64,000 bases of DNA from Enterobacter phage fGh-Ecl02: sequence record ON212266.1; one strand, given 5' to 3'. The notes below the pieces were generated by a model. That model was not told where the DNA came from. It did not search any database and was given only the letters and a program-made list of their open reading frames with translations. Both the position numbers and the translations under genes were made by a program. Position 1 is the stretch's first letter. Each line of letters opens with the position of its first letter. This document shows, in pieces, positions 13,975 through 17,571 of this stretch.

Positions 13975-14670
13975 ATGGCCAGACCATTTGAAAATTACTT
14001 CTACCATGATTCATTGATGAAATACATCAATCTGTTTGCCACCATTATGTCTGATCTGAAGGTGAACACAGAGCGTGGTCTTATGGAAGTCCCATTACAC
14101 ATGGCCATCGGGAGACGCAATGACCTCAACAGGAACGTGCCGTCCAACATGCTTCCATTTGCGACTTTCTCTTTTGGTCAGTTTGAGATCAACAAACAGG
14201 TGACGAAGACGTACCACAATCGACAATCGACACCAACAGCAGGGGCGAAGCAGCGAATCCCCCTGATTATCGATTTTGAGTACAATATCCGAACCAAGAA
14301 ATTGGTTGAGATGTTACAGGTGCTAGAGCAGGTTTATTCGGTATTCACCCCCTCTCTAGACTGTGGTATCAAGGACAACGATACACTACAGCAAGACCAG
14401 AAGATCAAGATCCAACTGGTCAGCCACCAGATGTCCGATAACTGGGAAGGGGATGCTTCTGATTCACCACACGTCGACTGCTCCTTCATGTTCCAGCTGA
14501 GCGGCTTCATCTACGGGTATGACTATTGGGTGGACAACGGTGGAGGCGGGGATCCTAACGGGATCAAAGAGATAATTATCGAAATGTCTAATGATTTGAA
14601 AACACCGTGGACGGAACTGCCGGAGTGGTTCCGTGTTGACAAAGACGGTGTACATCATCCTGGAGATTGA
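13975..14670 (+). CDS. 15: Tail sheath stabiliser/completion protein gp15 homologue
   Basis: N-terminal FxxYxxLMxDL pattern and position after gp14, as in T4. SD GGAGA. Confidence 0.75.
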   Translation: MARPFENYFYHDSLMKYINLFATIMSDLKVNTERGLMEVPLHMAIGRRNDLNRNVPSNMLPFATFSFGQFEINKQVTKTYHNRQSTPTAGAKQRIPLIIDFEYNIRTKKLVEMLQVLEQVYSVFTPSLDCGIKDNDTLQQDQKIKIQLVSHQMSDNWEGDASDSPHVDCSFMFQLSGFIYGYDYWVDNGGGGDPNGIKEIIIEMSNDLKTPWTELPEWFRVDKDGVHHPGD

Positions 14671-14672
14671 TT

Positions 14673-15380
14673 ATGAGTGCTATGTCAGAACGCCTATTAT
14701 CCACCCTCAGCGCTATCCAAGCGCGAGATGAGGTCGCTCAAGAAGTCATGGAGAAGACCTCGCCTGTGGCTGGAAAGGATTACGATCCGGATACAGGCGT
14801 GTGGTTGGGTGAAAAGCCTGTGGGGTATGAGCCTGTGGTGTTTCCTCCTTCATTGGACCCAGAAGAGCTGAAGCCCAAGGAATCTAAGGTTCCAGACTTC
14901 GAAGACACTGATGCCACCACCGACTACAAACGCATCCGTGACACAACTTATGCCATGCAGGAAGCCACGATGTTCATGATGGGACAGGCAGCCAAACTTG
15001 CGACGACGACTGAAGCACCCCGTGCTTTCACAGTCTTCAAAGAGTTGGGTGAACTCATGCGCGGTCTGAACAAAGACCTGATGGAGAACCAGAAAACCAT
15101 CAAGGCGGTCACGGGCGACAGAGAGCCGCCTCCTGGAGACGAAACAACCGTCGAGGTCACCACGTCCCCTGATGGCACAACCACGGTCAACGTCGGTAAA
15201 CAGGCCAGGTCTTCCCGTGATCTACTGAAGACCATCGAAGACGCCCGTAAACGTGCTGAAGAACGTGCTGCAGCGAAATCTGCGTCCAAAGGACCTGATC
15301 CCGAAGAAGATGTAATCGACGTTCAGGCGGAGCCGCAGCCGAAGGAAGAAGGTGAAGACAATGGCGTATCAGAAGCGTGA
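14673..15380 (+). CDS. 16: Terminase small subunit gp16 homologue
   Basis: Central segment (DTDATTDYKRIRDT..AAKLATTTEAPRAFTVFKEL) parallels T4 gp16 (DLEDDYGVVRRN..AAKIFLETAK..PRHMEVFATL). Sits immediately before the terminase large subunit. Confidence 0.7.
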   Translation: MSAMSERLLSTLSAIQARDEVAQEVMEKTSPVAGKDYDPDTGVWLGEKPVGYEPVVFPPSLDPEELKPKESKVPDFEDTDATTDYKRIRDTTYAMQEATMFMMGQAAKLATTTEAPRAFTVFKELGELMRGLNKDLMENQKTIKAVTGDREPPPGDETTVEVTTSPDGTTTVNVGKQARSSRDLLKTIEDARKRAEERAAAKSASKGPDPEEDVIDVQAEPQPKEEGEDNGVSEA

Positions 15381-17571
15381 TGTAGAATACGCCCCGCTCA
15401 AGACGGGGTTTCGGACAGAAGACGTCAGACTGCGTATGGACCAAACGTTCATGCGCAAGCCGTCTGTGCGCGCTCCTCGCGTGGAGTTGATGCTAACAGA
15501 TGAGCAGGAATCGGAGTTCGTCGAGTGTGCGATGGACGCCCATTACTTCGCCGCCAACTACTACAAGATAACGACCATCGATAAAGGCTTCATCCTCTTT
15601 GATATGCACGATTATCAGAAGCAGTTGTTCCATGACTTCCAGGACTATCGATTCAATGTGGTCGTCCAGGCTCGTCAGTCTGGGAAATGTGTAAAAGGTG
15701 ACACGCTTGTCACAGTTTACGATACTCTCAGTCAAGAGGAATTGATCCTGACTATAGGGGAGCTTCACAGTCGCTTCGAGGACGTCAACCACGCTGTGCC
15801 ACTGAATACCATTGGCAACCATGACAAGTTCGTGGACAGCCGCTTCGGCAAACGTTATTTTGTACAATCCGATAGTGGCTGGGTTCCGGTTATCGCAGCA
15901 CATAAGACGAAGAAATATGCGGAATTCGTTATTGTCACCGTTACCGGGCGGCGAATTAACGTGGCCGATGAACATATGTTCTTCACTCCGGAAATGAAGG
16001 AGATATTTGCCAAAGACCTGAATGCTGGGTCATACATCATGACGTCAGAAGGTCCAGAAGAAATTCGTGAGATTTGGCAGACTGGTGAAATGCATCACAT
16101 GTATGACCTACAGGTGAAATCTAGTGATCAGCGCTACTACACCAACGGCTTCCTCAGCCACAACACGACAGTCGTGGCAGCATTCCTTCTCTGGTATGCC
16201 ATGTTCCACTCTGACAAAGAGATAGCAGTACTGGCGAACAAAGAGAAGCAGGCGATTGAAATTCTAGATCGTATTCGCAAAGCATATCAAGATCTGCCAT
16301 TCTTCCTCCAACAGGGTTGTGAGAAGTTCGGTTCCACGCTGATCGAGTTCGAAAACGGATCAAAGATCTATGCTTACGCGACGTCTTCGGACTCCATCCG
16401 TGGTCGATCCGTATCGCTACTGTATGTGGATGAAGTGGCGTTCATCGAAAACGACTTTGAGTTCTGGGAGTCTACATTCCCGGCGATTGCATCTGCGGAT
16501 ACTTCACGTTGTATCCTGACCAGTACACCGAAAGGCCAGCGTGGATTGTTCTACGACATCGTCACCAAGGCGAATCCAGAACATCCACAATACAATGACT
16601 TCAAACTCACAGAGGTCCCATGGTATCGTGTTCCAACGTACACCAAAGATCCAAACTGGGAAACCAAGCAGAGAGCGAAGCTGGGTGATGCACGTTTCGA
16701 TCAGGAATTCGGTATCAAGTTCCGTGGTTCTGTGGGATCACTGATACCTTCCAAGTGTCTGGACAAGATGACATCGAAGCTGTATCAGGAGCCGAACGAG
16801 TTCACCAAGATTTACCACGACTACGATCCGAAGCGCATTTATATGGGTATCGCAGATACAGGCAAGGGCGTCGAGGGGGATTATTCTGTGCTGACCATTA
16901 TCGACATCACAGACTATCCTCACAAGATCGCAGCCAAGTATCGAAACAACACGATACCTCCAATGATGTATGCGTACACAATCGCCGATATGGGCGAGAA
17001 GTATGGAACGTGCCCGATGCTAGTCGAGACCAACAACGACGTGGGTGGTCAGGTAATCACAATTCTATATCAGGAAATTGAATATCCCGAGATCATATTC
17101 ACTACAACAGATACCAAGGGTACAGGCAAGAGAATCGGTGGTCGCCGCCCTGAGCCTGGTATCAATACCAACAAGAAGGTGCGCACAAACGGCTGTGCCA
17201 ACCTGAAAGCCCTGATTGAACGTGAAATGCTGGTGATAGATGACCAGGACACGATAGATGAACTCAGTACATTCGTATGGACTGGAACAAGGTATGAAGC
17301 CGATGATGGTTGTCATGATGACTGTGTAATGCCCCTCGTGTTGTATGCATGGGCGGTGAAACAAGAATGGTTTAGTGATCTCACCAATTCAAATATCTCT
17401 GTGGACATGAGAGGACGGTTGTCTGCGATGGAAGAATCTCAGATGCTACCATTTGGGGGTATGATGTCGACGCCAGATCCTCACTCTGTGGAGAACATCC
17501 CAGGGTTCGGTGGAATTCAGGTTTATGATGAACGCTCTGGTATGTCTATGGAAGAATGGCTGAGACGGTGA
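15361..17571 (+). CDS. 17: Terminase large subunit gp17 homologue, interrupted by a mini-intein in the Walker A motif
   Basis: Exteins give ARQSGK|TTVVAAFLLW, a P-loop. Downstream ATPase/nuclease regions are T4 gp17-like. 739 aa versus about 610 for T4 gp17. Confidence 0.9.
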   Translation: MAYQKRDVEYAPLKTGFRTEDVRLRMDQTFMRKPSVRAPRVELMLTDEQESEFVECAMDAHYFAANYYKITTIDKGFILFDMHDYQKQLFHDFQDYRFNVVVQARQSGKCVKGDTLVTVYDTLSQEELILTIGELHSRFEDVNHAVPLNTIGNHDKFVDSRFGKRYFVQSDSGWVPVIAAHKTKKYAEFVIVTVTGRRINVADEHMFFTPEMKEIFAKDLNAGSYIMTSEGPEEIREIWQTGEMHHMYDLQVKSSDQRYYTNGFLSHNTTVVAAFLLWYAMFHSDKEIAVLANKEKQAIEILDRIRKAYQDLPFFLQQGCEKFGSTLIEFENGSKIYAYATSSDSIRGRSVSLLYVDEVAFIENDFEFWESTFPAIASADTSRCILTSTPKGQRGLFYDIVTKANPEHPQYNDFKLTEVPWYRVPTYTKDPNWETKQRAKLGDARFDQEFGIKFRGSVGSLIPSKCLDKMTSKLYQEPNEFTKIYHDYDPKRIYMGIADTGKGVEGDYSVLTIIDITDYPHKIAAKYRNNTIPPMMYAYTIADMGEKYGTCPMLVETNNDVGGQVITILYQEIEYPEIIFTTTDTKGTGKRIGGRRPEPGINTNKKVRTNGCANLKALIEREMLVIDDQDTIDELSTFVWTGTRYEADDGCHDDCVMPLVLYAWAVKQEWFSDLTNSNISVDMRGRLSAMEESQMLPFGGMMSTPDPHSVENIPGFGGIQVYDERSGMSMEEWLRR
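15688..16164 (+). mobile_element. Mini-intein (159 aa) inside terminase gp17
   Basis: Begins with Cys (CVKGDTLV, block A), ends with ...FLSHN followed by a +1 Thr. Too short for a homing-endonuclease domain. Removing it restores GKT. Confidence 0.8.

Follow-up and report, generated by a model that had tools for sequence, protein, structure and literature searches.

The large terminase subunit (TerL) of Enterobacter phage fGh-Ecl02 is encoded, in the 64,000-nucleotide stretch of record ON212266.1 that was analyzed here (“the window”), by a gene that carries an interruption midway through its ATP-binding loop. A first-pass annotation of the DNA had proposed that the interruption, at positions 15688–16164, is a mini-intein splitting the P-loop of a gp17 homologue. 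Our analysis bears this out. We put at about 0.93 the probability that the insert is a functional class 1 mini-intein, housed in the Walker A loop of the T4-type TerL of an Agtrevirus-like Ackermannviridae phage; this reading draws on sequence comparison and on a predicted fold. A TerL P-loop intein is already known for this phage family, having been annotated in RefSeq and published in 2013 and 2019; the insertion is of a textbook type and is nothing new in kind.

Is the interrupted gene a terminase, and where exactly does the insert fall? The gene and its parts are laid out as follows.

15361–17571, + strand: terL precursor coding sequence, 736 amino acids and 84.6 kDa, with a TGA stop at 17569–17571 and an alternative GTG upstream at 15352
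15361–15687, + strand: N-extein, 109 amino acids, ending in ...VVQARQSGK and aligned with gp17 residues 85–166 (...SRQLGK)
15670–15687, + strand: N-terminal part of Walker A, A-R-Q-S-G-K, with its invariant Lys as the −1 residue, from the alignment to ...SRQLGK of T4 gp17
15688–16164, + strand: predicted class 1 mini-intein, 159 amino acids and 18.3 kDa, without an endonuclease domain (PF14890, TIGR01445, family profile, AlphaFold AF2 model, Foldseek)
16165–16167, + strand: Thr+1, which is the Walker A Thr and is predicted to act also as the nucleophile of transesterification; T (rarely S) in every allele
16165–17568, + strand: C-extein, 468 amino acids, holding the remainder of the ATPase domain (Walker B-like LLYVDE) and the nuclease domain, aligned with gp17 residues 166–564

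In a search of solved structures, the gp17 proteins of T4 (3cpe/3ezk) and RB49 matched TerL at E = 1e-64. The gp17 match came in two blocks, one spanning query residues 31–112 up to ...SRQLGK and the other running from query residue 271 onward, at (K)TTVVA. The insert therefore lies exactly between the Lys and the Thr of Walker A. When it was removed, the Terminase_6N score in Pfam rose from 63 to 80 bits and the match became continuous across the P-loop, just as expected from the earlier claim that excision would restore a GKT Walker A motif. The spliced sequence matched PF03237 at 80.4 bits and PF17289 at 30.5 bits (Terminase_6N and Terminase_6C domains), and it contains both ARQSGKT and LLYVDE. 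These matches identify the host gene as encoding a large terminase of T4 type (Terminase_6, gp17-like), in which an N-terminal ATPase bearing Walker A and B motifs is joined to a C-terminal RNase H-like nuclease. In every Ackermannviridae record sampled, terL occupies one locus only and is split into two pieces. The 64-kb window was found to contain neither a second terL nor a second intein, nor any homologue of the endonucleases that occur in relatives (see below); it also yielded no tRNAs.

The terL start is ambiguous. The longest open reading frame (ORF) call opens at GTG 15352 and gives 739 amino acids, whereas the annotated relatives all open at the ATG equivalent to 15361; a purine-rich stretch, GAAGGAAGAAG, stands upstream of both. 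From ATG 15361, the precursor has 736 residues, with the intein at Cys110–Asn268 (18.3 kDa), and the spliced TerL would have 577 residues (66.4 kDa). The figure of about 580 residues that had been given for the spliced product was thus in the right range, if not exact.

Translation of 15688–16164 on the + strand yields 159 amino acids, CVKGDTLV...GFLSHN, flanked by ...VVQARQSGK and TTVVAAFLLW within one long ORF. The boundaries of the insert had been placed correctly to the base, and the residues named at its splice junctions (Cys1, a His-Asn end and Thr+1) are all present. Taken alone, the insert matched the Pfam family Intein_splicing (PF14890) with 36.2 bits (cutoff 35.8; E = 6.8e-9) and TIGR01445, intein_Nterm, with 25.9 bits (cutoff 24.5). 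A homologue search with the intein by itself retrieved only two proteins, as the database consists of whole proteins; the full-length TerL query was the informative one. We aligned 25 homologous inserts from TerL proteins, down to 26% identity, and used this alignment both for a family profile and for AlphaFold. C1, D94, H96, D140, H158 and N159 are invariant in it. The elements of the intein are placed as follows.

15688–15690, + strand: Cys1, the block A nucleophile, predicted to undergo the N-S acyl shift; invariant in 25/25 family members
15754–15825, + strand: variable helical linker, intein residues ~23–46, where the alignment has gaps and insertions and the model has helices at residues 23–29 and 36–43
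15964–15975, + strand: block B, A93-D94-E95-H96; A93, D94 and H96 are invariant, and the usual Thr is Ala across the family
16099–16107, + strand: block F, M138-Y-D140, with the conserved Asp; M138 and D140 are invariant
16153–16164, + strand: block G, L156-S157-H158-N159; LSHN is invariant, and Asn159 is predicted to cyclize with the penultimate His assisting

Compared with the PDB, the family profile matched VidaL (E = 2.4e-12), the consensus TerL intein Cat (1.1e-11) and gp41-1 (1.8e-11); CDC21, NrdJ-1 and Spl DnaX ranked below them.

The fold predicted for the insert agrees with this assignment. AlphaFold was unusable on the single sequence (a pLDDT, or predicted local distance difference test score, of 31), and that prediction was replaced by one based on the 25-sequence alignment, which reached a pLDDT of 94.6 and a predicted template-modeling score (pTM) of 0.87. 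The model is one HINT domain with two short helices. Foldseek found 70 matches in the PDB at E ≤ 1e-3; the best 50 of the 70 are all intein/HINT folds, and these are inteins except for BIL2, which is a bacterial intein-like (BIL) HINT domain. The top match was VidaL, which we take to be terminase-derived (E = 2.7e-11; template-modeling scores 0.76/0.83), and for the listed inteins and BIL domains together the template-modeling score is given as up to 0.81. Taken with the Pfam and profile E-values, such agreement lies well outside what chance would produce. By this model, the insert is a HINT fold. Pfam assigned the insert to intein/HINT families only and detected no endonuclease domain within the 159 residues, in frame or in the other frames, in agreement with the first-pass annotation. 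An antisense ORF of 160 codons that crosses the intein (15493–15975, − strand) was considered as a hidden endonuclease and rejected: it had no Pfam match, and the boundaries of the open stretch vary in every relative. The insert is, on these comparisons, a mini-intein of 159 amino acids with no homing endonuclease between its splicing blocks.

Several observations weigh against so firm a reading. The single-sequence matches to Pfam and TIGRFAM exceed their cutoffs by a narrow margin, and the C-terminal intein model TIGR01443 scored 12.1 bits, under its cutoff of 15.6. The block B Thr is replaced by Ala93 throughout the family, with His96 kept. Finally, our literature search found no published splicing experiment on any Ackermannviridae TerL intein. 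Does the missing Thr matter? In the comparison of the profile to the PDB, block B aligned with “CAFNH” of VidaL, “CSDNH” of Cat and “CSEEH” of gp41-1. Because these three inteins, with Ala or Ser in place of the Thr, are experimentally active, Ala93 is compatible with splicing, although the canonical T-x-x-H is only partly matched. Of the intein blocks that had been expected, therefore, the block A Cys, the block B His, the block F Asp and the block G His-Asn are in place, and the block B Thr is not.

Homologous terminases bearing the same 159 residues as an ordinary structural insertion had been named as the outcome that would speak against an intein. The full-length TerL search gave a different picture. 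It retrieved TerLs of 575–581 amino acids (P0015–P0019), with 73–84% extein identity, that read VQARQSGK/TTVVAAFLLW and lack precisely the 159 residues; many further homologues likewise have a precisely empty RQSGK/TTVVAAF site. The intein-free contigs share the window’s gene order (gp13, gp14, gp15, terS, terL, sheath, tube, portal), and the empty site is identical to the window’s spliced junction at 47–50 of 60 nucleotides. Such precise empty sites in syntenic relatives mean that the insert is not an ordinary structural insertion. These terL genes without the intein (P0015–P0019; L011–L013) come from uncultured phages with the Ackermannviridae gene order, on contigs of ~118 kb. The gene next to terL in the window is the following.

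14667–15380, + strand: terS (small terminase subunit), overlapping the terL start; it matches DNA_Packaging PF11053 at 29.2 bits, above the cutoff, and relatives share the gene order

The intein was found in 309 phage records and occurs in ~280 deposited genomes. Its carriers span all of the genera of Ackermannviridae that were sampled: Kuttervirus, Agtrevirus, Limestonevirus, Taipeivirus, Miltonvirus and Vapseptimavirus. The closest TerLs without an intein that were seen in cultured phages belong to Vibrio phages (~55% identity), and the terL genes of T4-like phages and cyanophages are uninterrupted. On a neighbor-joining tree of the exteins (computed with a numpy implementation), presence of the intein is patchy, with intein-free uncultured lineages interleaved among the carriers, a pattern that implies several losses or gains. 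With the window’s own terL, the genes of Escherichia phages LHE287, A221 and AV101 and of Salmonella phage vB_CECAV_050 share 95–96.5% identity, and the terL of Shigella phage Ag3 (Agtrevirus) shares 87%. By these identities, the window belongs to an Agtrevirus-like phage of the Ackermannviridae (ViI/CBA120-like).

How would such a protein mature? We infer both that splicing takes place and that the precursor is inactive, and the following scheme is conditional on these two points. terL would be translated as an 84.6-kDa precursor in which an 18.3-kDa HINT domain separates Lys109 from the Walker A Thr; with these two residues held apart, the ATP-binding loop presumably could not form. An N-S acyl shift at Cys1 would be followed by transfer of the thioester to the hydroxyl of Thr+1; cyclization of Asn159, aided by His158, would then free the intein, and an O-N shift would leave a normal peptide bond. 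Splicing is predicted to yield the free intein and a TerL of 66.4 kDa whose ARQSGKT loop is intact. Five mycobacteriophage TerL inteins have been observed to splice experimentally (PMC5050341), as have AceL-TerL, GOS-TerL and Cat (PMC11766414). Where the synonymous rate (dS) is unsaturated, the ratio of nonsynonymous to synonymous rates (dN/dS) in the intein is 0.045–0.15. Judging from its sequence, the intein in the window is almost certainly active. The first-pass annotation had gone further and asserted that packaging depends on splicing. This claim does not stand as a demonstration. It does stand as a strong inference, because the P-loop is interrupted, the genomes sampled have one terL apiece, purifying selection acts on the intein and ~280 viable isolates carry it.

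Three other explanations of the insert deserve consideration. It is scarcely credible that the insert is an artefact or an element of the nucleic acid, such as a misassembly or an intron, that is not translated. We found no evidence in support of this notion, whereas the insert is in frame and free of stops, and across six enterobacterial genera its length is exactly 477 nucleotides; it is present in ~280 genomes sequenced independently; and its substitutions follow a protein-coding pattern, with dN/dS far under 1. It is very improbable as well that the insert is a HINT-like domain that never splices (a degenerate intein, a BIL domain or a pretoxin-HINT domain), permanently retained in a TerL that works nonetheless. 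To be sure, some records call the whole protein a “pretoxin HINT domain protein”, there is a weak PT-HINT match (E = 0.0077), and the block B Thr is absent. That match (PF07591), however, scores 16.9 bits, under its cutoff of 27.7, whereas Intein_splicing and TIGR01445 pass theirs. Moreover, the insert parts the Walker A Lys from the Thr, residues that must be adjacent; every splicing residue, Asn159 and the +1 nucleophile among them, stays invariant across deep divergence; precisely empty sites exist; and the closest solved relatives are splicing-active inteins. A pretoxin-HINT or BIL identity was rejected on its score and on context, the insert being inside the Walker A motif of an essential enzyme and not at a C-terminal toxin boundary.

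The remaining alternative accepts splicing and concerns its role. The intein might have been domesticated as a regulator, such that conditional splicing (responsive to temperature, redox, time after infection or assembly state) gates the packaging ATPase; its fixation in cultured Ackermannviridae would in that case be due to an advantage for the phage and not merely to the difficulty of precise loss. We regard this as unlikely, albeit less so than the two preceding explanations. In its favor, all cultured Ackermannviridae genera in the sample have the intein, as far out as the distant Vibrio phage VAP7; purifying selection on it is strong although it has no endonuclease; and it occupies an active site, a location that Kelley et al. 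argued would permit post-translational control (PMC5050341). Any intein in an essential gene, however, should experience purifying selection, since mutants that fail to splice would not survive. With one Cys only, the intein could not form an internal disulfide redox trap. The element is also dispensable, given that intein-free syntenic relatives interleave with carriers on the extein tree.

The same element has been described in ViI-like phages. For Salmonella phage Marshall, RefSeq records an “intein from Cys110 to Asn268” with mat_peptide features; the announcements of Marshall and Maynard in 2013 (PMC3853055, PMC3868846) and of Klebsiella phage Magnus in 2019 (PMC6763660) each report a large terminase interrupted by an intein. 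These inteins, like that of the window, have 159 residues, extend from Cys110 to Asn268 and have identical junctions. The window’s copy is 78% identical to those of Marshall and Vi01 and differs from the ViI-like copies at the level of the allele only: it is a recombinant, with residues 1–134 of CBA120 type and the rest of Ag3 type. Annotation is not uniform across the family: several deposited genomes, KM209228, KM209320, KJ716335 and OR776998 among them, label this terL with its intein “pretoxin HINT domain protein” or “hypothetical protein”.

Among solved structures, AceL-TerL, GOS-TerL, Cat (PDB 6dsl) and VidaL (PDB 6vgv) are the closest relatives of the window’s intein by profile and fold. 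They share with it a block B of the form A/S-x-x-H, a block F of the form xYD and a C-terminus of the type YYTNGI(L/V)SHN, and their unusual split point, 25–37 residues from the N-terminus, coincides with its variable linker. They differ in that they are naturally split, splice in trans and have Cys+1 (Ser1 and Cys+1 in GOS-TerL), whereas the window’s intein is contiguous, is predicted to splice in cis and has Thr+1; sequence identity is ~19–26% only. The host protein of AceL, GOS and Cat is likewise a large terminase (PMC11766414).

The insertion site has a precedent of its own. The mycobacteriophage TerL1-a intein likewise separates the nucleophilic Thr from the invariant Lys of Walker A (Kelley et al. 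2016, PMC5050341), a position which that study describes as the “classic” P-loop intein site, with splicing needed for the active site and the pentamer. The host proteins differ: TerL1-a resides in a TerL of the terminase_1 family, and the window’s intein in a T4-type terminase_6. In the survey of Kelley et al., terminase_6 TerLs had inteins only at the C-motif, site f (PMC5050341).

The family’s variable region, as aligned, follows block A (residues ~23–46) and does not lie between blocks B and F. In relatives, this linker is the site of length variation, of nested endonuclease genes and of a natural split point. Relatives of 422–448 amino acids have their extra sequence there, and its in-frame part is a filler with no recognizable domain. 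In-frame endonuclease domains were sought in these relatives with Pfam and none was detected; the endonucleases are encoded in another frame. Two metagenomic terL genes exemplify these large versions of the same P-loop intein: P0054 (447 amino acids; L015:1763–2689) and P0060 (422 amino acids; L014:1871–2710). Their in-frame filler is rich in K, R, E and S. The nested out-of-frame ORF is an HNH+NUMOD3 endonuclease in L015 (PHROG 655, E = 1e-44) and a DUF559/MTES_1575-like endonuclease in L014. Actinobacteriophage inteins with an out-of-frame homing endonuclease have the same architecture (bioRxiv 10.1101/2025.01.02.630785); the window’s intein, unlike them, is a minimal form with no nested endonuclease ORF.

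Other relatives depart from the contiguous form. In Agrobacterium jumbo phage Atu_ph07, terL consists of two ORFs (L010:2483–2854 and L010:2866–4674). The first ends in ...GRQLGK/SVHKSTD...LVR and a stop, with an apparent N-intein fragment of 42 residues starting at Ser1; the second opens with a C-intein fragment and continues as ...LFYTNGILSHN/TTVAAAYLLW. From these sequences, the Atu_ph07 intein appears to be split naturally and in an atypical way, to occupy the same K/T site of Walker A and to be homologous to that of the window. Campylobacter phage CP21 (L009:1994–3205) has a homologous contiguous intein three residues upstream in the P-loop (PRQ/C...VLSHN/SSKST), and the end of this ORF resembles the start of a second intein (...RGFS/CLENTRVQV...), broken across two annotated ORFs. 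P0050 has a second intein downstream of its P-loop intein. In the TerL of Vibrio phage VP-1 (P0058), residues 506–589 form a GIY-YIG endonuclease domain that follows the ATPase domain, with the nuclease domain undetected; a homing-endonuclease gene, either fused or intervening, is a possible explanation.

Does the window’s intein share the history of its host gene? The comparison with CBA120 and Ag3 delimits one further feature.

15645–16089, + strand: recombination patch, 445 nucleotides, in which the last ~14 N-extein codons and intein residues 1–134 are of CBA120 type (Kuttervirus) and the surroundings of Ag3 type (Agtrevirus)

Inside the patch, 107/114 informative sites are CBA120-like, vs. 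113/966 outside it; the maximum chi-square, 424, was reached by 0/300 permutations, and sliding-window identity agrees with the patch. The dS value relative to CBA120 is 0.29 in the intein and 1.24 in the N-extein. Similarly, the intein is 97.5% identical to that of CBA120 and 76% to that of Ag3, whereas the C-extein is 97.4% identical to Ag3 and 86% to CBA120. CBA120 and Vi01 display the mirror pattern: their exteins are 99–100% identical and their inteins 78.6%. By these comparisons, intein and host gene differ in history. As the right breakpoint falls inside the intein, at ~residue 134, the window’s intein is chimeric.

On the favored reading, the endonuclease-free intein is inherited with terL, has been gained or lost in some lineages, and has alleles that are sometimes swapped between co-infecting relatives by homologous recombination; the window’s copy displays one such exchange. 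It is a tentative suggestion, and on balance a doubtful one, that mini-intein alleles are still moving between Ackermannviridae genera by intein-centered gene conversion, possibly driven in trans by free-standing PHROG 655 HNH-NUMOD3 endonucleases. Behind the suggestion stand the CBA120-type patch of the window, the contrast between CBA120 and Vi01, and two PHROG 655 endonucleases: one immediately upstream of terL in limestoneviruses, the other nested out of frame within a large form of the intein in a distant phage. Such movement, if real, would amount to “collaborative homing” by an intein whose own nuclease is gone. In the Limestonevirus Dickeya phage Ds16CZ, a free-standing endonuclease gene (L005:1309–2187) lies between terS and terL, ~500 nucleotides upstream of the intein site. 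Its product has NUMOD3, matches PHROG 655 at E = 2e-58 and is 29% identical to the nested endonuclease of L015; gene conversion in the vicinity could be driven by it. No endonuclease gene of this type lies upstream of terL in the window or in the other genera. The recombination mosaic and the endonuclease link are side results, and we attach modest weight to them.

For annotation, the consequence is that this gene should be recorded as a single terL with an intein in it. Phylogenies are often built on terL; because the intein recombines independently of its host gene, TerL trees will be distorted unless the intein is removed first. The element, compact and predicted to splice in cis with Cys1 and Thr+1, is also a relative of the TerL inteins that already serve as protein-engineering tools. 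For the phage itself, it offers a clean example of an essential motor whose active site, as predicted here, would exist only after protein splicing.

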